64,000 nt of DNA from Candidatus Saccharimonadota bacterium. Lineage in GTDB: Bacteria > Patescibacteriota > Saccharimonadia > Saccharimonadales > AQU-01. The stretch covers positions 2,136-66,135 of the forward strand of contig JAHBAU020000005.1 of NCBI GenBank assembly GCA_018499905.2, written 5' to 3'. How positions within the stretch are numbered: position 1 is the first letter of the stretch; each line of letters opens with the position of its first letter. The position numbers were made by a program, and so were the translations under genes. Shown here piece by piece: positions 7,572 to 63,733 of the stretch. The notes beneath the pieces are model-generated. The model had not been told where the DNA came from. It saw nothing but the letters and a program-made list of their open reading frames with translations, and did no database searches.

Positions 7572-8096
7572 CGAGCGTAAAGATTTTTTATAAAAATCTG
7601 CACATTTTTGTAACTCTAAAGCAAAGCTCGGGATAAAGTCTTGTGGCCGGTCTTTCGCCTCTGCTTCCAGCTCGTCAATTGGGAAAACTGCGACGCTCTC
7701 AACTTCATGATTATGTGCGGTATCAGGCTCAGCTACACCAATATACAGGTGCGAATATCGGCAACGAGTCAAACTACCGGTCTCATCGGGGAACGAGTTC
7801 ATGAACCGCTCGACAAAATGAAGCTGACACCGAATACCAATCTCTTCAAATAACTCGCGTTCAGCAGCCGCCAAAGCATCCTCACCGCTCGATAAGCCGC
7901 CACAGGCCGAGACATCCCAAAGTCCTGGATAATGTTTTTTTGTTTGAGCCCGTTTTTGAATAATGACTTTGTTGTCTGGGGTAAATACGAAAATTATGGC
8001 ATTTGGCGTAGTGTAGTTCTTGTCTTCGGCCTCCTCGCGAGTACATTGACCAATTATCTGGCCGTTCTGATCATAATAGTCGACTAGTTCATCCAT
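7566..8096 (-). CDS. NUDIX hydrolase (IPP-isomerase-like subgroup)
   Basis: NUDIX box GGLSSGEDALAAAERELFEEIGI. Confidence 0.8.
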   Translation of the reverse strand: MDELVDYYDQNGQIIGQCTREEAEDKNYTTPNAIIFVFTPDNKVIIQKRAQTKKHYPGLWDVSACGGLSSGEDALAAAERELFEEIGIRCQLHFVERFMNSFPDETGSLTRCRYSHLYIGVAEPDTAHNHEVESVAVFPIDELEAEAKDRPQDFIPSFALELQKCADFYKKSLRSL

Positions 8097-8102
8097 GATG
8101 GT

Positions 8103-9389
8103 TTAGTGCCTGTCCTCCGCGGTTTTGACGTGCTGTCTGGCCCATTCGTCCAAACTCCCGCCACCACCGGCGCTTATGAGTAACACGAGACTGCCGTTCT
8201 TGGCGGCCTGGGTAATATCGGCCCACAACGACTCATCCAGGACGGCCGCCTTGCCAGTAACCCCGGTACGTTCAATAAGCTGAGCAGGGGAAAGCAACTC
8301 TAGTTTTGGGTCTTCGCGGGCCAGGTAGCTTGGTACCCAAATCAGCTCACGAATGTTCGCGAACAAACCATCAAATTGGCCACGCTCTAGCATAAAGTGC
8401 TGACGGGTGTTATGCAGGCCTTCGTAAACTACCACAATGTTGTCACCGGCCACCTCATGCGCAGTTTGAAGGGCGCCACGGATCTTTTCCATGGTGTGAG
8501 CGTAGTCGGTATAGATGTTTTCGGCCAGCCTTTCAAAACGGCGAGACAGGCCAGGGAAGCGGTTCATGATCTCGACCAGCCTTAATTCATCATAATCGCT
8601 GAGCTGCTGAACGGCGCGAATAACTTGCCAGGCGTTCTGCCGGTTGACTAGCCCAATGAGCTTGAGCTGCGGCGCCACGTCATTTTCATGTAACAAAACT
8701 AGTTTTTGAGGCTTAGCGTCGAGACCATCTTCATCCCAAGCAACCGACACCTGACAGCTATGTATAAACTGCACAAAGGCAGCGGTGTAGTCCTCTTGAG
8801 TAGGGTAGACGTCCTGATGATCGTAACTAACGCCGGTAATAACGCCCATATATGGGGTAAAGCTCAAGAAATTTCGATCATACTCGTCGGCTTCATAAAC
8901 AAAATATTCAGCTGCAGGGTTAAACTCGCCCATTTCACCAAAAGGAAGCTTGGCGCCGACGGAGTAGCTTAAACTCAGCCCAAGCTCTTTGAGCAGCCAA
9001 ATCATCATCGCTGTGGTAGTAGATTTGCCATGTGTCCCGGCTATGGCAATAAGCTTTTGTCCAGTTTGTTCTAGCAGCTCATTTAAGAATTCATCGCGCT
9101 TGGTCGCCTTTATGCCTAATTCCTTGGCTTTGAGCAGTTCTGGGTGCTGTGGGTTTTCTTTTGGCAGGGCTGACGAATACACTAGCCAGTCGATCGGCTG
9201 CTTACGATGGGCCTCGGCAAGTTCTTCACCAGTCTGACCTATAGCAATGGTAATGCCAGCCTTTTTGTATAGGTACTCAGTATAGCTGCTGGATTGTTTG
9301 TCGGAGCCTGACACATCGAAGCCGGCTTGCTTGGCAATAAGTGCTAACGGCCCGGTTCCGGCGCCAATCCCGGCAAAATAAACATGCAT
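8103..9389 (-). CDS. Mur ligase family protein (MurC/Mpl-like UDP-N-acetylmuramate-amino acid ligase)
   Basis: N-terminal Rossmann MHVYFAGIGAGTGPLALIAKQAGFDVSGSD and ATP site AIAGTHGKSTTTAMM. Start chosen at the internal ATG (M20 of the track ORF). Confidence 0.75.
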   Translation of the reverse strand: MHVYFAGIGAGTGPLALIAKQAGFDVSGSDKQSSSYTEYLYKKAGITIAIGQTGEELAEAHRKQPIDWLVYSSALPKENPQHPELLKAKELGIKATKRDEFLNELLEQTGQKLIAIAGTHGKSTTTAMMIWLLKELGLSLSYSVGAKLPFGEMGEFNPAAEYFVYEADEYDRNFLSFTPYMGVITGVSYDHQDVYPTQEDYTAAFVQFIHSCQVSVAWDEDGLDAKPQKLVLLHENDVAPQLKLIGLVNRQNAWQVIRAVQQLSDYDELRLVEIMNRFPGLSRRFERLAENIYTDYAHTMEKIRGALQTAHEVAGDNIVVVYEGLHNTRQHFMLERGQFDGLFANIRELIWVPSYLAREDPKLELLSPAQLIERTGVTGKAAVLDESLWADITQAAKNGSLVLLISAGGGGSLDEWARQHVKTAEDRH

Positions 9390-16474: not shown

Positions 16475-16550
16475 TGGTGGGGGTGGTTGGGTTCGAACCA
16501 ACGACCAAAGGATTATGAGTCCTCTGCTCTAACCACTGAGCTACACCCCC
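16475..16550 (-). tRNA. tRNA(CAU), elongator type (Met or lysidine-modified Ile2), CCA encoded
   Basis: Hand-folded cloverleaf: acceptor GGGGGTG/CACCCCC, D arm GCTC/GAGC, anticodon loop CTCATAA, T arm GTTGG-TTCGAAC-CCAAC, ACCA end. Confidence 0.9.
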
Positions 16551-46745: not shown

Positions 46746-46808
46746 GCAGTTATCATATCAAAGAATATGAAGGTGGCTTCTGGCTCAAGATGGTATTTTA
46801 TCTATGCT

Positions 46809-46827
46809 TGGTAGCCATCGATAGAAC
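46809..46827. repeat. Putative attL (core TGGTAGC plus element-side arm CAT-CGATAGAA)
   Basis: Read directly from the sequence. The arm is the exact inverse of 53252-53259. Confidence 0.65.
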
Positions 46828-47033
46828 GACTTGGAACTCAATCAAGGCAGAACTCATTATCATGTGGCAGATAGTATCTGATTATCAGAAGTTATACATC
46901 AAGTAGTCTTAAGCGGCTTTAACAGAACCAGAGGTAGTAACTATAGACATAAGATTGTATTACTGTAAATAATATTGCTTATGGTTTGAAGTACAGTTCT
47001 TTTGCAGTAGTATCAATACAGAGGTAAAAGTTT

Positions 47034-48887
47034 GTGAAACTGAAAGCGTTTAGAGTAAAGAATTTCAAGTCAATCATTGATTCTGGATTGACTCATCTTT
47101 CAGTGGACTACATTACTACGGTTATAGGTCAAAATGAGTCTGGCAAGTCAGCACTTATTGAAGCTCTCGATAGTTATTTTAAGGGAGTTATATTAGAAAA
47201 AGACATAAGACATGATGATGGAGATTTACCGTCTGTTGATTGTGTATATGCAACGAGTGAAGCAGAAATCAGAACGATACTTGATGAGTATCAATTACCA
47301 GAGGCAGTGGTGCAAGCATTACGTGCGAACTCATGGGAGTTTACCTTACAGCGAACATGGGTTACTGATTTAGCTAAAGGTGAACTGAGCCTCATTCTGC
47401 CATCACTAACAGATGATGATTTTACATACTCGGAAAGCGAATCCGAGCAGGAAAAAGAAACTCCAAGTCCTGAGGAACCAGACCTACCACCTGAGCCAAA
47501 GAAAAAACAGCTGACAGTAAAAGCCATGACTGATCTATTATTCGAGAACGTGCCCATCATAATATTTTTTGACAAACAAGAGCACATACTTCCAGCGACC
47601 ATTGACATTAAAAGTCTCAATACTTCAAAATCCGTTAAAGGAAAAGCAGCCGCACTAAACTTTTTAAAGCTTGTCGGTCTTGACGACTTAACTTACTTTA
47701 ACGATCGTAAAAATAGAGCCAAAATACAACACAAAATAGAGAAAGAAGCCATAAAGTTCACAAAAGACTTTCAAGTTTTCTGGCAACAGGAAATAGGTGC
47801 AAGCATCACAGGTTCTCAAAATGTTAAGGGAGAGAAAGTCGAGATAAAATTTGGCGTTGATGCCCATGATGGTGGCGAAGAAGCAGGAACAGGCTCCTAT
47901 CTTTATTTTATTGTAGGAGATGGCAAACAACTTTTGCATCCTGATCAGCGTAGTGATGGCATGCGATGGTACATCTCATTTTATCTACAGCTCAGAGCCT
48001 ATTCTCAAAATGGCGAGAGGCCACAAGTGATAGTCATGGATGAGCCTGGACAGTTCTTACATGCAAGTGCACAAGAGGACTTATTGAAGCTATTCGAAGC
48101 TGAAGCAAATGAAAACGTAAACATCATATACACCACCCACTCTCCGTTTATGGTTGGACAAGGAGATAAAATTAATAGAATCATTGCTGCTCAACGATCA
48201 CCACACAAAAAGAATGACGGATACAGTCATACGGAAATTATGAGTGGTTTTGAGCTCGGTGCTGCTTCAAGAAATACACTATTCCCATTAATGGCTCATA
48301 TGGGTATGAGATTGTCAGATCAGGAAGTTATAAAGCGAGAGAATAACTTAATTACTGAAGAAATATCAGCTACTTACTATATCAAGGCATTCCTACTACT
48401 GAATGGAAAAGACATAGATGTAAATATCATAGCTTCGACTGGTGCTGATAATGTGCCACAGTTATGTTATGAGTTTTTGGGTTGGGGGCTTAAATTCAGC
48501 GTACTACTAGACGGTGATAAAAAGGGAGAAAAAGTACGTAATAATTTAAAGCGCGATTTATTTTTAGATGATGACGAAATAGCCAACAAGAATGTTTATC
48601 GAATGCGTGGTCATAACGGCATCGAGGATATTTTTACCCAAAAGGATTTTAAGAAACATGTCTTAGGCGATGAATCGGTGTCATATACTGGCGATAATTC
48701 AAAATACGTAGATGAGCAAAAACTTCCCAAAGCTGTTCTTGCAGCAATATTCTTGCAGAAAGTTAAGGAAGGTCATATTGCAATCGAGGGAGATGACGGA
48801 CTCATGCCAACTACGAAAACAAATATACAAAAAGTAGTAAACGCTGTAGAAAAGTTAATTTCTAATCAGGCAAGTCGCTCTGAGTAG
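47034..48887 (+). CDS. OLD-family ATP-dependent nuclease (ABC/AAA_15-type ATPase plus C-terminal Toprim)
   Basis: GTG start after GAGGTAAAAG. FRVKNFKSI N-terminus, Walker A GQNESGKS, signature-like SDGMRWYISFYLQL, Walker B VIVMDEPGQFLH, THSPFM. Toprim-like ITEE...VLLDGDKKG...GIEDIF. Confidence 0.75.
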   Translation: MKLKAFRVKNFKSIIDSGLTHLSVDYITTVIGQNESGKSALIEALDSYFKGVILEKDIRHDDGDLPSVDCVYATSEAEIRTILDEYQLPEAVVQALRANSWEFTLQRTWVTDLAKGELSLILPSLTDDDFTYSESESEQEKETPSPEEPDLPPEPKKKQLTVKAMTDLLFENVPIIIFFDKQEHILPATIDIKSLNTSKSVKGKAAALNFLKLVGLDDLTYFNDRKNRAKIQHKIEKEAIKFTKDFQVFWQQEIGASITGSQNVKGEKVEIKFGVDAHDGGEEAGTGSYLYFIVGDGKQLLHPDQRSDGMRWYISFYLQLRAYSQNGERPQVIVMDEPGQFLHASAQEDLLKLFEAEANENVNIIYTTHSPFMVGQGDKINRIIAAQRSPHKKNDGYSHTEIMSGFELGAASRNTLFPLMAHMGMRLSDQEVIKRENNLITEEISATYYIKAFLLLNGKDIDVNIIASTGADNVPQLCYEFLGWGLKFSVLLDGDKKGEKVRNNLKRDLFLDDDEIANKNVYRMRGHNGIEDIFTQKDFKKHVLGDESVSYTGDNSKYVDEQKLPKAVLAAIFLQKVKEGHIAIEGDDGLMPTTKTNIQKVVNAVEKLISNQASRSE

Positions 48888-48965
48888 TTTCTTCTAAAGA
48901 TGACTCTATATCGATAAGTATTTTGAAAAACTCAACTAATGATTTTATATCTGAGTCCGATAAAC

Positions 48966-49391
48966 TCATTGGTTAAATTCCGGCACGATCAAAGTTGGTT
49001 CAGGCACTGGAGATAACTCTACTTGGTTATTCTCGCGCTCAATTCGCAAACGTCCTAATTCTGCTTCTGATAAGGCGAACCATGCCCCAAAGAACAATAA
49101 CCAAGCGATGATAAATAGAATAATTACTTTTAAGATTCGCCACCATAGCTTTTGCTTAGGCTTAGATTGTTTACGTCTTATGTAGTAGTTAGCTAATAAG
49201 ATAGTGATGATAAGTAAAAATAGTCTCGTATACGGAAAGATTGGGTAAAGAAATGTTTGTAGTTGATTCTCTAGAAGTGTAAGTATCGTTTCAAAAACAA
49301 AATTTCCAAAAATAAATAACAGAACCGCACTTGCATAGACTTTGATTTTATTGACTTTGTGTTGAGGCTTTTCTTCTTCTGGCATAGACAC
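48966..49391 (-). CDS. Small 3-TM membrane protein, hypothetical (island cargo)
   Basis: AAAGGAG RBS 7 nt upstream of the ATG. Three hydrophobic helices separated by basic loops (RRKQSKPKQKLWWR). Confidence 0.6.
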   Translation of the reverse strand: MSMPEEEKPQHKVNKIKVYASAVLLFIFGNFVFETILTLLENQLQTFLYPIFPYTRLFLLIITILLANYYIRRKQSKPKQKLWWRILKVIILFIIAWLLFFGAWFALSEAELGRLRIERENNQVELSPVPEPTLIVPEFNQ

Positions 49392-49413
49392 TCCTTTTTA
49401 TTTGGGGTGTCGT

Positions 49414-49443
49414 AAATAAAAAGGACAACCCCTCTAGGTTGTC
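49414..49443 (-). terminator. Terminator-like hairpin between the HEPN-motif gene and the 3-TM gene
   Basis: Minus strand reads GACAACC-TAGAGGG-GTTGTC followed by CTTTTTATTT. It ends about 22 nt upstream of the 49391 start codon. Confidence 0.5.
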
Positions 49444-49573
49444 TACACCAGCACAAGGTTGTACCCTTGCGTTTTTCGAGAGATTGCCCTTTTTGGGTAC
49501 AACCAATCGAAGATTGGCTTATTTACAAGCTTGTACTGATGTAGACCTCTTTATAATAACAGAGGTTGAACTG

Positions 49574-50734
49574 TTATTTAGAGTCTTTTGGACGTTTCTT
49601 CTCAAGCTCTTCTTTTATTTCTTCCATGAGGTCTTTAAGGCTAGGGTGATATCCATCCGGATACATATCGCTAAACATGGGTTCTCTTTCTGTAGTTCGA
49701 GGTATCAATGCCTTTGAGTCGATCTTACCTCCGACTGCCTTTATCATTTCTTTTCTAAATAAATGCTCTGGCAGATCAAGCTCTTCGGGCTTAATAAAAC
49801 CAACTCCTAGGCGAACCTGCTCTTGCTCTAAATCTTTGATAATTTCAAATAAAATATCAACTAAATCACGACACTTCTCTACAGCTTCCTTACTTTCACT
49901 ATACTGAAAGTTAGTTATTGCAAAGCGATGCACTGCGCGGTTTCTTACATCGTACAGTTCGTTTATCCGTTTGAAGAAAAGCACTTTATCGTAGTTAGGA
50001 AAGACAACTTCATCTTCGGCAAGCTTATATATACCACGCTCCGTTATGAATTTACCGCCTTCTTTTTGCTCAAATAATTCTCGGAAATCCGGATCAACTC
50101 TTTTTGTCTTTCTCACATTAATTCTTGTAAGCAATATCGAGTATCTTAACTGTGTGTCTAACAGTGCTACAAGTAGTATAAGTGCTTCCAGATAGTCACG
50201 AGTGTTATCAAGCTCGTCCATAGAGTCACGGAATAGTAGTGTAAGGGACATGAATGCACTCATGAAATTATCAAACGGGTACTGATCGAGGTGGTTCTTG
50301 TAGTCTGCCTGCTTAAAATCATTAAACTTACTTATATTATCTTCAATGAGCTTCTTGAGATATTCTGCATCCTTTTCGAGACCTTTTACAGTGCCTTTAT
50401 CCTTTAAGCCAAAAGAACCAACTGAAACTCTGTAATCTTTCCAGTCATATATACGAAGAAAACCGTTCTCAGACATTGCAAAGTATTCCCAAGTTGTCTT
50501 ATCGTCAACAAAGCGCATGCCGGCTGCTTCCATAATGTCAACGTATGCTACATCAAAAATGAATTCTAGAAAGTGGAAAGCGATTCTTGGATTAACATCA
50601 ACATGCAAAATTCCACTTCCGCCCCAAGGCTTAGGCAGGTCATCAGCTGTTTCCACGAAAGCAAAGCGATCCTGAAGTTGCTTTCGGATTGTCTTTAACT
50701 CTTTGAGTAGTTTTGAACTATCATTGTCACTCAC
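49574..50734 (-). CDS. Uncharacterised 386-aa protein with C-terminal HEPN-type RNxxxH motif (putative RNase effector)
   Basis: GTG start. LYDVRNRAVHRF (RNRAVH encoded at 49928-49945) sits in a helical C-terminal half. The N-terminal ~200 aa have no recognisable domain. Confidence 0.55.
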   Translation of the reverse strand: MSDNDSSKLLKELKTIRKQLQDRFAFVETADDLPKPWGGSGILHVDVNPRIAFHFLEFIFDVAYVDIMEAAGMRFVDDKTTWEYFAMSENGFLRIYDWKDYRVSVGSFGLKDKGTVKGLEKDAEYLKKLIEDNISKFNDFKQADYKNHLDQYPFDNFMSAFMSLTLLFRDSMDELDNTRDYLEALILLVALLDTQLRYSILLTRINVRKTKRVDPDFRELFEQKEGGKFITERGIYKLAEDEVVFPNYDKVLFFKRINELYDVRNRAVHRFAITNFQYSESKEAVEKCRDLVDILFEIIKDLEQEQVRLGVGFIKPEELDLPEHLFRKEMIKAVGGKIDSKALIPRTTEREPMFSDMYPDGYHPSLKDLMEEIKEELEKKRPKDSK

Positions 50735-51029
50735 TACATTAATTTAAACAGCTAACAGTAGTAAAAGTCCATATAACTGGCTTGCTCTCTGCATCGATGT
50801 CCTATAACACCCCCCTGTGTTTTCTGACAACTGTCGAGCGAAGCCGAAGAGCGTTGCACAATGTCGAATATTGTGCGATGACCCAGTTGCACTGTTCATG
50901 TCGCAAAAGAACTTTTGCGATCTTGAGCGCGCTTGCCGATGTGCCCCACCTTCTCTTTTGCTCTTCCGTTTTCTGTACCAAGTGCTCACACAAAATTTTT
51001 TCTAGAATCGAGTGTCTATAATAAAGAGT

Positions 51030-51491
51030 ATGGCAAAGAGTAATAACCGACAGCCAACCCATGAAGAGCTTCTAGCGATGACGTACAAGCAATTATTAGA
51101 GCTAAATCTTAAAGTAGATTTAATGGACAGGAAGCTAGAGAACCTTCAACATGATATTAGTCAGAGTACGTTCGTGCGTAGTGAACTTATTAAACTCAGG
51201 TTTGACCATAAAACAGACGAGCTTTATATCACTGAGTTTTTCAAAATACCATTTGAGGGTAACGAAGCGGTTTTGTTACGAGCAATGTTTAAGCTGTCTA
51301 ATGGTCTACCTAAGAAGTCGGTCAAGTTCTATACGGCTGAATTGGCAGGTTCTTTTAAGAAAGATACAGACGGGCTTAAAACAGCATCTTCAGTACATGG
51401 AACAATAAAAAGAATAGATGCAACCGTAAAGCACAGGACAATGGGCTTGGAAATCTTCAAAATCAAAACTAAAGTTTTCTTTTTTCTGTAA
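51030..51491 (+). CDS. Putative winged-helix DNA-binding protein (island regulator)
   Basis: The C-terminal half NEAVLLRAMFKLSNGLPKKSVKFYTAELAG...SSVHGTIKRIDATVKH resembles an OmpR/CadC-type wHTH. The N-terminus is coiled coil. Confidence 0.4.
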   Translation: MAKSNNRQPTHEELLAMTYKQLLELNLKVDLMDRKLENLQHDISQSTFVRSELIKLRFDHKTDELYITEFFKIPFEGNEAVLLRAMFKLSNGLPKKSVKFYTAELAGSFKKDTDGLKTASSVHGTIKRIDATVKHRTMGLEIFKIKTKVFFFL

Positions 51492-51549
51492 TTTACAGAT
51501 AAGAAATTCACGAAAATTCACATTGTGGCTGATTTGCTTTAATGAGCTA

Positions 51550-51732
51550 ATGAAGCTCCGAAGCGATACGGTCATCTCAATCGATCAAGCGAAAAAATTG
51601 CTTGGCGATGAAGCTTTGTCTATGACCGATGAAGAGATTCAAGATCTCATAGATGACTTTGATGTTATAGCTCAATACACTATCAAAATGGTTCAAGAGT
51701 TTGATAATAATGAAAGTAAACAGATGCAATAA
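51550..51732 (+). CDS. Small acidic protein (60 aa) immediately upstream of the recombinase
   Basis: ATG-initiated ORF (MKLRSDTVISIDQAKKLLGDEALSMTDEEIQDLIDDFD...). Its stop is 8 nt before the recombinase ORF. Confidence 0.4.
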   Translation: MKLRSDTVISIDQAKKLLGDEALSMTDEEIQDLIDDFDVIAQYTIKMVQEFDNNESKQMQ

Positions 51733-51740
51733 ATGATAAA

Positions 51741-53303
51741 ATGGTTCTAAGTATGCAATGTGTAGGTTATGTAAGGGTATCAACCGAAGAACAAGTGCAC
51801 GGCACTAGCCTAGACATGCAACAAAAGGCTTGCTTTGACTTTGCAAAGTCAAACGGCTGGGAACTACCAAAAGAAAATATCTTTCGTGATGAGGGACAAT
51901 CAGCAAAAGCAACCAATAGACCACAGTTACTGGCGATGCTCGAATTTTGTAGGAAGAATAAGGGCAAAATAGATAAGTGCATTGTTTGGAAGCTCGATAG
52001 ATTTGCGCGTAACTCAGATGATCATGTATTGATACGCACGGCTCTAAAAAAGAACGGCGTCAGTTTAGTTTCCGTAACTGAGCCTATTGATCAAAGCCCG
52101 ACTGGAAAGCTCATGGAAACGATGCTCTCAGGCTTCGCAGAGTTCGACAATGACATCAGAACGTTTAGAACTACTGAAGGTATGAAAAAACGCCTAGAGC
52201 AAGGTGGTTGGCCTCATGATGCGCCAATCGGCTATGTGAAGTCCAAGACCTCGCAAGGAATCACAAGTATTTCGCCAGACCCAGACATGGCACCTATTGT
52301 GAAGGAATTTTTAGAAACTTTTGCTACTGGTCAATATACAGTTAAGCAAGCAAAAGACTTAGCTTTTGAAATGGGATTAAAAGGTAAAAAGGGTAATAAG
52401 CGTACATGGCAGACTACAGAGAATATGCTGAAAAACCCAATATATGCCGGCTACATTCAATCTAAATATACAGATTACAAAAGGTTGGCAGGCTTACACC
52501 AAGCACTGATAGCACCAGATATTTTTGAAAAGAATCAGAGAATACTTTCTGGCAAAAACAGAATACAGTTCAAAAACGATGATTCAGAGTACCCACTGCG
52601 TAGAGATTTCTTAAAGTGTGGCTACTGTGAAAAGTTTGTAACAGGTAGTGCTCCTCGTGGAAACGGCGGAAGATACCCTCGCTATGGCTGTATGTACTGT
52701 AAATCATCAAAGATTGGTGGAAAGAAAGTTAGTAAAAGTAGCGAAGAGGTTCACAAGGAATTTAGATACATATTGTCGAGGATTCGATACAACGAAGGAA
52801 GACTAAAACTATTCAAACAAATTGTGCTAACTCGTTGGTGTGATGAGTATGATGACGCTTTAAAATCGGCTCATGAAATTAATCAAGACATCGACAAACT
52901 CAAAGCAGAACGTTCACGTACTATTCGTAAGTTTACTGCTGATCAAATCAGTTATCAGGAGAAAGAATCAGTAGTAAAAGATATAGATACTGAGATTGAG
53001 AACCTAGAGAACAAGAAGCTTGAAGCTGATATCTATGCTAATCAAAAAGAGAAGATCGTTGAAAATGCTATTTTGTTCATGGAAGACCCATCTGAGTTCT
53101 GGAACCGAGCACCTTTACAGATACAGAAACGTGTTCAACGCATCATTTTTCCAGAAGGTTTGAGCTATGACTTCGAAAATGGTTTTGGAACCGTAAAAGT
53201 CAACGAATCTTATCTGTTAATAAACAAAATAGCCGGCGAGCCGGCTATAAATTCTATCGTGGTAGCGGGGCCAGGACTCGAACCTGGGACCTCGTGGTTA
53301 TGA
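51741..53303 (+). CDS. Large serine recombinase/integrase
   Basis: Catalytic GYVRVSTEEQ, resolvase domain, recombinase domain, zinc ribbon CGYCEKFV...YGCMYC, and coiled coil. The last ~14 codons are the complement of the tRNA. Confidence 0.9.
   Translation: MVLSMQCVGYVRVSTEEQVHGTSLDMQQKACFDFAKSNGWELPKENIFRDEGQSAKATNRPQLLAMLEFCRKNKGKIDKCIVWKLDRFARNSDDHVLIRTALKKNGVSLVSVTEPIDQSPTGKLMETMLSGFAEFDNDIRTFRTTEGMKKRLEQGGWPHDAPIGYVKSKTSQGITSISPDPDMAPIVKEFLETFATGQYTVKQAKDLAFEMGLKGKKGNKRTWQTTENMLKNPIYAGYIQSKYTDYKRLAGLHQALIAPDIFEKNQRILSGKNRIQFKNDDSEYPLRRDFLKCGYCEKFVTGSAPRGNGGRYPRYGCMYCKSSKIGGKKVSKSSEEVHKEFRYILSRIRYNEGRLKLFKQIVLTRWCDEYDDALKSAHEINQDIDKLKAERSRTIRKFTADQISYQEKESVVKDIDTEIENLENKKLEADIYANQKEKIVENAILFMEDPSEFWNRAPLQIQKRVQRIIFPEGLSYDFENGFGTVKVNESYLLINKIAGEPAINSIVVAGPGLEPGTSWL
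53252..53266. repeat. Putative attR (element-side arm TTCTATCG plus core TGGTAGC)
   Basis: Read directly from the sequence. The core is the complement of the tRNA 3' terminus GCTACCA. Confidence 0.65.
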
Positions 53304-53334
53304 GCCACGCGAGCTGCCGCTGCTCCACCCCGCG
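53260..53334 (-). tRNA. tRNA(CAU), initiator (fMet)-like, CCA encoded
   Basis: 5' CGCGGGGTGGAGCAGCGGCAGCTCGCGTGGCTCATAACCACGAGGTCCCAGGTTCGAGTCCTGGCCCCGCTACCA. Close to the E. coli tRNA-fMet acceptor and D arm, with a C1/U72 mismatch and an A11:U24 pair. Confidence 0.9.
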
Positions 53335-63653: not shown

Positions 63654-63730
63654 TGGCAGGGTAGCTCAGTTGGTTAGAGCACAGGACTCATAAGCCTGGG
63701 GTCGCGAGTTCAAATCTCGCCCCTGCTACC
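63654..63730 (+). tRNA. tRNA(CAU), elongator type (Met or Ile2), CCA encoded
   Basis: GGCAGGG-TA-GCTC-AGTTGGTTA-GAGC-A-CAGGA-CTCATAA-GCCTG-GGGTC-GCGAG-TTCAAAT-CTCGC-CCCTGCT-ACCA. The 31:39 position is an A/G mismatch. Confidence 0.85.
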
Positions 63731-63733
63731 AAA

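Follow-up and report, generated by a model that had tools for sequence, protein, structure and literature searches.

A candidate single-gene HEPN ribonuclease and a candidate cis-regulatory RNA leader in a family of integrative islands of Saccharibacteria

Introduction

HepT-like HEPN proteins are classically the toxins of toxin–antitoxin modules. In the MNT-HEPN modules (MntA-HepT; PF01934) the toxin bears an Rx4HxY motif, the tyrosine of which is the site of AMPylation, and the antitoxin is an MNT nucleotidyltransferase encoded by the adjacent gene. The single-gene abortive-infection (Abi) proteins, among them ApeA, AbiD/AbiF ("Abi_2"), AbiJ, AbiU2 and those of the PrrC/RloC type, join a regulatory or sensor part and a HEPN ribonuclease (RNase) in one polypeptide, encoded in defence islands or on mobile elements. 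In the systems of Cas13b with Csx27 or Csx28, a HEPN gene lies beside a small gene for a protein with several transmembrane (TM) segments. The Patescibacteria, Saccharibacteria included, live on other bacteria and have tiny genomes; how they resist phages is poorly understood. Here, we analyze a locus within a stretch of 64,000 nucleotides (the window) from Candidatus Saccharimonadota bacterium (assembly GCA_018499905.2, contig JAHBAU020000005.1, positions 2,136 to 66,135 of the forward strand), in which a gene for a 386-amino-acid (aa) HEPN-family protein is followed, across a 182-nucleotide (nt) spacer, by a gene for a small protein with three TM segments (3-TM). A preliminary description of the locus had proposed that the two genes form an operon, and that a sensor-HEPN protein with a small membrane partner would make up a defence or addiction module.

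From sequence comparison and a predicted structure, we lean towards the view that the 386-aa protein belongs, as a stand-alone protein, to a hitherto undescribed family within the HepT-like branch of the HEPN ribonuclease superfamily, and that it would serve as an autoinhibited single-gene RNase in abortive-infection-type defence; we hold the two parts, taken jointly, to be somewhat more probable than the contrary.

Results

The 386-aa protein has a HEPN domain with an invariant catalytic set

The gene and the segments of its product are as follows, in coordinates of the window.

49574..50734, minus strand: 386-aa stand-alone HEPN-family gene (open reading frame [ORF], homologues, AlphaFold2 model)
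50405..50734, minus strand: N-terminal alpha/beta domain, about residues 1–110 (secondary structure in the model)
49808..50278, minus strand: HEPN domain, about residues 153–309 (model, topology, profile matches)
50144..50158, minus strand: acidic-x3-basic motif D193-T-Q-L-R197 in helix 2, counterpart of the HEPN Ex3[KR] (invariance)
49928..49945, minus strand: Rx4H catalytic motif R264-N-R-A-V-H269 (invariance and position in the model)

The peptide LYDVRNRAVHRF is found in the 386-aa ORF, with R264 to H269 encoded at 49945..49928. As a bare motif, RNxxxH is at chance level in this protein: among the ORFs of at least 100 aa in the window it occurs twice, the second copy being in a serine recombinase, and Rx4H occurs 29 times. 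The weight of RNRAVH therefore comes from its invariance in homologues. Among 5.8 billion proteins, the homologues of the 386-aa protein form 35 clusters, all of them metagenomic and without annotation. In an alignment of 27 homologues, with identity down to 42%, R264, N265 and H269 are invariant, as are D193, T194, R197, R204, N206, E232 and R233, and the motifs FHFLEF, DDK..W and YDWK.Y.VS.G are conserved in the N-terminal domain. Moreover, a profile search run exhaustively over 1.84 billion representatives recovered 211 relatives, 17 of them with E < 1e-30, and many of the remainder are of about 190 aa and consist of the C-terminal domain alone. Across 72 distant relatives (17–33% identity) the sole invariant residues are D193, R197, E232, R264, N265 and H269. 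Both the polar residue that follows the conserved arginine, N265, and the acidic motif of helix 2, in which D193 replaces the usual glutamate and is paired with R197, are thus invariant in the close as well as in the distant relatives.

The AlphaFold2 model of the protein (pLDDT 87.2, pTM 0.78) places an alpha/beta domain (residues 1–110) ahead of a long helix (116–151), the HEPN domain and a C-terminal extension. The predicted HEPN helices are H1 (153–178), H2 (181–208), H3 (250–268) and a kinked H4 (278–309), with an insert (209–249) between H2 and H3; D193x3R197 sits in H2, R264 and N265 form the last turn of H3 and H269 is the first residue of the loop that follows. In the description of the HEPN superfamily by Anantharaman et al. 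(PMC3710099), the catalytic motif ends helix 3, an insert separates helices 2 and 3, helix 2 carries an acidic Ex3[KR], a polar residue (N, D or H) follows the arginine, and helix 4 is kinked. The predicted topology of residues 153–309 agrees with that description. The four-helix core expected around RNRAVH is therefore seen in the model, its Foldseek matches to the Protein Data Bank (PDB) being weak (see below).

Profile comparisons point to the same superfamily. The best Pfam match of the window protein is HEPN_RiboL-PSP (PF18735; E 4e-5, 24.1 bits against a gathering score of 28.4); the match is partial, with residues 216–301 aligned to model positions 97–191, in the C-terminal half of the model, and takes in the catalytic motif. 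Weak Pfam matches are also found among the 72 distant relatives, to HepT-like models in 28 and to RiboL-PSP in 11. One relative, P0136, recovered by the family profile with E 3.7e-12, passes the Pfam HepT-like family (PF01934) with 33.6 bits against a gathering score of 23.5. When the close-family alignment is compared with P0136 by hhalign, the probability is 96.3%, and D..LR, SER, RNR.VH and LE.EQ fall in register. As judged from these profiles, the link of the window protein to a curated HEPN family is a transitive one, through P0136. PDB sequence searches with the protein and two profiles returned nothing relevant. We regard HEPN membership as established by sequence and by the topology of the predicted model, and the earlier claim of a HEPN catalytic motif in a helical C-terminal half is borne out by the invariance of the motif, the topology and the HepT-like profile link.

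A HEPN domain may also be a non-catalytic helical module that binds a ligand or a protein, as in the HEPN domains attached to nucleotidyltransferases. The C-terminal domain of LinB (3jyy) is among the weak Foldseek matches of the model, and one or two relatives give weak NTase_sub_bind matches. However, the Rx4-6H motif is typically lost in non-catalytic HEPN domains (PMC3710099), whereas R, N and H, together with D..R of helix 2, are invariant across the 72 divergent relatives; we thus consider a non-catalytic role extremely unlikely.

The preliminary description had found nothing recognizable in an N-terminal region of about 200 aa. The region indeed has no recognized counterpart, the N-terminal domain being without a match in Pfam, NCBIfam, PADLOC, PHROGs or the PDB (by sequence or by Foldseek), but its length was overstated: the unmatched part spans about residues 1–150, since the HEPN helices begin at about residue 153. 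A Foldseek search of BFVD gave one weak match of the protein, in its N-terminal or another domain, to an uncharacterized 123-aa protein of Tupanvirus (E 0.024, TM-score 0.52, target-normalized).

The family is rare and patchy in distribution: it is carried by two of 185,579 species-representative genomes, and one of these copies is frameshifted. In a metagenome-assembled genome (MAG) labelled "uncultured Candidatus Saccharibacteria", the homologue at 8001–9129 of locus L008 (loci other than the window are referred to by number) splits into two frames (8001–8747 and 8755–9078) and is probably a frameshifted pseudogene or the result of an assembly error. Literature searches turned up nothing specific to the family.

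The protein falls outside the described HEPN systems

The 386-aa protein resembles the MntA-HepT toxins in the Rx4H core with an asparagine after the arginine; distant members of its family have RNRAVHRY, which is the Rx4HxY form, and the weak HepT-like matches of many relatives, as well as the passing score of one, point in the same direction. Nevertheless, the window protein itself has no match to a HepT-like model, and in this protein and its close clade a phenylalanine (HRF) occupies the position of the tyrosine, which is found only in the distant members. It is also about three times as long as those toxins and has both an unrelated N-terminal domain and an extension at the C-terminus, and no locus of the family has an adjacent MNT nucleotidyltransferase antitoxin. 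The protein is not a member of the MNT-HEPN modules. RiboL-PSP-HEPN (PF18735) gives the best Pfam match, with the catalytic motif aligned; however, the score lies below gathering, half of the model is matched and no endoribonuclease L-PSP neighbour was seen. The protein belongs neither to Pfam RiboL-PSP nor to any PADLOC system.

With the single-gene HEPN Abi proteins the 386-aa protein has in common the proposed logic of a regulatory or sensor part and a HEPN RNase in one polypeptide, and the encoding in defence islands or mobile elements. It differs from them in its N-terminal domain, and it matches neither a PADLOC family (E up to 1) nor a Pfam Abi family. The likeness to Cas13b with Csx27/Csx28, a HEPN gene beside a small multi-TM gene, is superficial: the pairing in the window is not conserved, the TM gene is a separately regulated part of the island backbone (see below), and no CRISPR array or cas genes were seen.

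The spacer holds a putative promoter, a structured RNA leader and a terminator

The elements downstream of the HEPN gene are as follows.

49553..49561, minus strand: extended -10 promoter-like element TGTTATTAT (TGnTAnnAT; six-locus invariance)
49413..49547, minus strand: structured RNA leader, with helices P1, P2 and P3 and alternative pairings (fold, covariation)
49424–49443 and 49414–49423, minus strand: stem and T-run, respectively, of an intrinsic terminator (terminator scan)
48966..49385, minus strand (ORF to 49391): 3-TM protein gene, 139 aa (141 aa from GTG; TM segments, homologues)

The element TGTTATTAT lies 12 nt past the stop codon of the HEPN gene and 6–7 nt ahead of the first RNA helix. 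Its positions T6, G7, T9, A10, A13 and T14 do not vary across six independent loci, and from its fit to the sigma-70 consensus we infer that it acts as a promoter. The 182-nt spacer folds with -71.5 kcal/mol (z = -7.2; none of 200 shuffles is as good), so that the strong folding noted earlier is real. The predicted fold consists of a long P1 helix with an inner P2/P3 hairpin, about 125 nt in all, and the terminator directly precedes the ribosome-binding site of the TM gene.

The leader element is found in the same six loci: the window (49413–49566), L001 (9171–9317), L017 (8171–8330), L019 (8171–8330), L027 (5595–5749) and L032 (7815–7964). In all six it lies 25–35 nt upstream of the ribosome-binding site of a gene for a small membrane protein, which belongs to the 3-TM family in the window, L001, L017 and L032, is an acidic 1-TM protein in L019 and a DUF805 protein in L027; in L027 the leader and the DUF805 gene form a unit upstream of the HEPN gene. 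Across the six sequences, 97.7% of the cells are paired and 10 of the 37 pairs change on both sides, against 0–1 double-changed pairs in slid controls, and none of 500 shuffles reaches the pairing of the leader. The RNA also has conserved single-stranded stretches and mutually exclusive helices. A second helix, of GGTTGTACCC with GGGTACAACC, covaries on inspection of the six sequences (GTAGCC/GGCTAC in L001, TGTGTC/GACACA in L019); it would exclude P3, and P2 could form a pseudoknot with it.

In all six copies the sense strand folds more stably than the antisense, by 6–12 kcal/mol, and G-U pairs are conserved, which led us to reject an antisense small RNA. A reading as a repetitive extragenic palindrome or miniature inverted-repeat transposable element was rejected as well, the hairpin being unique in the window. 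We did not count a weak covariance-model match in L014 (28.6 bits, 28% GC, with no membrane-protein ORF downstream) among the members of the RNA family. The leader matches no family of Rfam 15, and no copy of the motif was found on viral contigs.

Taken together, the sequence features suggest that the 3-TM gene is transcribed separately, from a promoter of its own and through a structured leader that contains a terminator. The two-gene operon of the preliminary description is not supported: a putative promoter, a covarying RNA and a terminator between the two genes refute a simple HEPN–TM operon. Riboswitches and attenuators show the same order of promoter, covarying multi-helix RNA with alternative pairings, intrinsic terminator, ribosome-binding site and ORF; the spacer element differs from these in having no Rfam match, in being represented by six examples on one family of islands and in preceding three unrelated membrane proteins. 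It is a candidate new cis-regulatory leader, riboswitch-like, with six copies in one island family.

The 3-TM gene belongs to the island backbone

The likelier start of the 3-TM gene is the ATG at 49385, 5 nt past AAGGAG, which gives a protein of 139 aa, the length also of the database copy P0184. The TM segments (residues 16–34, 48–66 and 89–107) are accompanied by a basic loop, RRKQSKPKQK. The protein has 35 homologue clusters of its own and matches no PADLOC-DB 2.0 family at E up to 1; NCBIfam and PHROGs gave noise alone for this protein and for the HEPN protein. Pfam matches of the TM protein, such as Acyl_transf_3, were rejected as sub-threshold, generic hydrophobic matches.

Among about 15 independent loci of the HEPN family, which were found by way of the HEPN protein itself, a 3-TM homologue lies downstream of the HEPN gene in three only (the window, L001 and L017), where both genes share a strand and are separated by 182–198 nt. 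The position is taken by the unrelated acidic 1-TM protein in L019 and is empty in L002 and L009, and a TM neighbour is absent beside every HEPN homologue of 68% identity or less. Conversely, the complete 1.0-Mb genome of L032 has the 3-TM gene and the leader on the same backbone without a HEPN gene: downstream of the 3-TM gene come the 423-aa and 307-aa genes also found in L001, and the slot of the HEPN gene is filled by a MerR/oxidoreductase operon. The 3-TM gene is therefore part of the island backbone and the HEPN gene exchangeable cargo, and the adjacency of the two results from the synteny of the island and not from a conserved functional pair. Neither the co-occurrence of the pair nor the role of small membrane partner that had been suggested for the 3-TM protein is supported.

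A two-component system encoded by a single operon, with the HEPN protein as sensor-RNase and the 3-TM protein as membrane effector or anchor, nonetheless has some points in its favour, namely the shared strand and the short gap in the window, L001 and L017, and the lack of a terminator from the HEPN stop codon to the spacer promoter, which may allow some read-through into the leader. However, besides the conserved -10 element and the terminator in the spacer, and besides L032, no TM neighbour is found in L002, L004, L005, L006, L009, L022, L025 or L030, and all three co-occurrences are on one closely related backbone. We consider such a system very unlikely.

A 35-aa ORF, MSLSDSDIKSLVEFFKILIDIESSLEETTQSDLPD, occupies 48862–48969 (minus strand) of the window; it starts at an ATG that shares bases with the 3-TM stop codon (ATGA), and its last 26 nt lie within the 3' end of the convergent OLD-like gene described below. 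A similar 44-aa ORF (MKLTDEELQALVQYFELLIELD…) follows the 3-TM gene of L017, and the motif of both resembles the C-terminal part of a 69-aa backbone protein.

A family of serine-recombinase islands with exchangeable cargo

The other genes of the island in the window, which extends over about 46800–53334 and adjoins a tRNA gene, are as follows.

47034..48887, plus strand: OLD/Gabija/PARIS-like ABC-type ATPase, 617 aa (Pfam AAA_15, AAA_21; PADLOC AriA, Old, ATPase-Toprim, GajA)
51012–51491, plus strand: 159-aa backbone protein
51523–51732, plus strand: 69-aa backbone protein
51741–53303, plus strand: 520-aa large serine recombinase (Pfam Resolvase, Recombinase; PHROG integrase)
53260..53334, minus strand: tRNA-Met at the end of the island (ARAGORN, Rfam)

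Of the named homologues of the MurC encoded in the window, the closest are from Candidatus Saccharimonadales and Saccharibacteria. The GC content is 37–40% over about 46.5–53.3 kb, against 45–48% in the flanks. The recombinase ORF ends with 44 nt that also belong, on the opposite strand, to the 3' part of the tRNA-Met gene, and the tRNA-Met is therefore the probable integration site. Direct repeats that would mark attachment (att) sites of the island were searched for and none was found; repeats of this type are not expected for a serine recombinase. The 617-aa ATPase, probably with a Toprim region at its C-terminus, is encoded convergently to the 3-TM gene and is variable defence cargo, absent from the sister islands. 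The mobile island with a convergent OLD-type ATPase is thus confirmed, and indeed the first description was right about the presence of the two ORFs (386 and 141 aa), the RNRAVH motif, the three TM helices, the folded spacer and the island context.

The recombinase (69–76% identity) and the 69-aa protein recur in L001, L009, L017, L019, L027 and L032, and the 159-aa protein in four of these six sister islands. They are one family of small (about 6–10 kb) integrative islands in Saccharibacteria, with a backbone of a large serine recombinase, a 52–69-aa protein and usually a 153–159-aa protein, and with exchangeable cargo: the OLD-like ATPase in the window, an MmeI-like restriction–modification enzyme in L009, a reverse transcriptase and an AAA_15 ATPase in L017, PIF1 and HSDR_N_2 in L019, a reverse transcriptase in L027 and the MerR/oxidoreductase block in L032.

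Several observations on these islands stand by themselves. The recombinase of L001 has the same tRNA-like C-terminal ending (…RGLEPLTPGL), and the window has three tRNA-Met (CAT) genes within its 64 kb (16475–16550, 53260–53334 and 63655–63731). A perfect 17-nt inverted repeat, GTATTTTGAAAAACTCA / TGAGTTTTTCAAAATAC, at 48918–48934 and 51233–51249, encloses both the 3-TM and the HEPN gene as well as part of the 159-aa gene, with one arm inside the coding sequence of the latter (…TEFFKI…); the match stops at 17 nt, and about 0.001 chance matches are expected in 6.9 kb. The MAG of L001/L007 (GCA_035526505.1, DATLCF010000001.1) is labelled "Nevskiaceae bacterium", yet carries an island of the Saccharibacteria type, with a recombinase 69% and a HEPN protein 81% identical to those of the window; the label may be wrong.

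The leader and the HEPN gene also lie close together in the close clade (at least 70% identity), in which the HEPN gene adjoins, within 700 nt, the unit of leader and membrane-protein gene in three arrangements: HEPN-RNA-3-TM (window, L001 and L017), HEPN-RNA-1-TM (L019) and RNA-DUF805-HEPN (L027). These arrangements, like the conserved single-stranded stretches and mutually exclusive helices of the leader, would suit a HEPN RNase tied to the adjacent RNA, either because the RNA is its antitoxin or substrate or because cleavage of the leader frees a membrane effector. Yet L032 has the RNA but no HEPN gene, and at least eight loci have the HEPN gene but not the RNA; the loci with the RNA are all of one island family, with recombinase and 69-aa protein in common, so that the co-location may reflect backbone synteny; and the unit, with RNA, terminator, ribosome-binding site and ORF in that order, is arranged as an ordinary cis-acting leader would be. 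A coupling of this kind is, in our view, unlikely.

Mobility or defence genes lie near the HEPN gene at most loci of the family

Neighbours with a role in mobility or defence are found in at least 12 of the about 15 independent loci, and the earlier expectation that homologues would lie in mobile or defence contexts is in this qualitative sense upheld. A serine recombinase is near the HEPN gene in the window, L001, L005, L009, L017, L019 and L027, and OLD-like/AAA_15 ATPases in the window, L004, L005, L017 and L030. RloB, GIY-YIG and PIF1 are neighbours in L004, SMODS (the CBASS-type cyclase domain), with or without AGS_C, in L006 and L030, the RVT_1 reverse transcriptase in L017 and L027, and DUF4238 in L030; restriction is represented by a type I restriction–modification system (L006), an MmeI-like enzyme (L009) and Mrr (L008), and a Ymh HEPN protein is also among the neighbours. 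In L008 the homologue comes directly after genes for an Mrr-type restriction endonuclease and an ABC-F-like ATPase. ABC-F-like double-ABC ATPases were seen in L004 (9200–10651, directly downstream of the HEPN homologue) and L008 (5262–6626, two genes upstream), and in no other locus; they may be accessory to it. Across the approximately 15 loci there is no conserved gene partner, and no neighbour of the NTP_transf or MNT nucleotidyltransferase type.

The same neighbourhoods bear on whether the HEPN protein serves the island rather than anti-phage defence, as an addiction or stabilization toxin or as an RNA-processing factor. The HEPN gene is present on six of the seven sampled islands of the recombinase family, in a sampling biased towards HEPN, and the protein is related to HepT-like HEPN proteins, the classical toxins of toxin–antitoxin modules. 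Against such a role, no conserved antitoxin candidate and no MNT nucleotidyltransferase is found nearby, homologues of 50% identity or less lie outside such islands, beside restriction–modification and SMODS (CBASS cyclase) genes, and in L032 the island persists without the HEPN gene. We regard it as a minor possibility, though one to be taken seriously.

Discussion

The reading that we favour, an autoinhibited single-gene RNase in abortive-infection-type defence, takes its mechanism by analogy from the HEPN enzymes RNase L, PrrC, RloC, HepT, Csm6 and Cas13 (reviewed in PMC3710099). The 386-aa protein would be a metal-independent RNase, the active site of which would form by the pairing of two HEPN domains. 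The N-terminal domain would hold the RNase inactive until a signal derived from infection is sensed, and the activated protein would then cut cellular and/or phage RNA, with the result that growth stops and the infection is aborted.

Several results weigh against this reading. The window protein lies under every Pfam gathering score and matches no PADLOC-DB 2.0 family. Foldseek comparison of the full-length model, and of a separate model of the domain (residues 141–336), with the PDB gave no match at E <= 0.001; the best of the weak matches are 8xdj_B (TM-score 0.47) and 1wwp_A (0.40; both target-normalized), with E > 1, and the HEPN structures 1wwp_A, 8xdj_B, 3jyy and Csm6 (6tug/5fsh) are only weak matches, with target-normalized TM-scores of 0.40–0.53. 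The enrichment of defence neighbours is qualitative, as the loci were gathered through the HEPN protein and come with no background rate; L002 has no evident defence neighbours. No relative was found on viral contigs, and hence there is no tie to a particular phage. Finally, the proximity of the HEPN gene and the leader unit in the close clade is not fully explained by pure hitch-hiking.

We also considered a broader possibility, that the leader represents a new class of regulatory RNA that gates three families of small membrane proteins and is coupled, in the close clade, to the HEPN RNase, which could for example cleave or bind the leader so that an effector is released upon infection. This is a speculative proposal, and we think it rather unlikely to hold; if it did, the leader-coupled HEPN protein would be part of an RNA-linked, two-stage defence module.

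As regards the HEPN protein, what we describe is a new family within a well-known kind. Uncharacterized HEPN proteins are common in defence islands, and so a single-gene HEPN protein will by itself not surprise the specialist; the RNA leader and the island family of Saccharibacteria are the less expected results. The analysis defines, in the first place, a rare and unannotated HEPN family in which the catalytic set is complete and the N-terminal domain is new and a candidate sensor. Moreover, it defines an unreported structured RNA leader ahead of genes for small membrane proteins, as well as small, tRNA-associated serine-recombinase islands that swap defence cargo among Saccharibacteria. If the HEPN protein acts alone, it would be a further single-gene abortive-infection nuclease, equipped with a new trigger-sensing domain.

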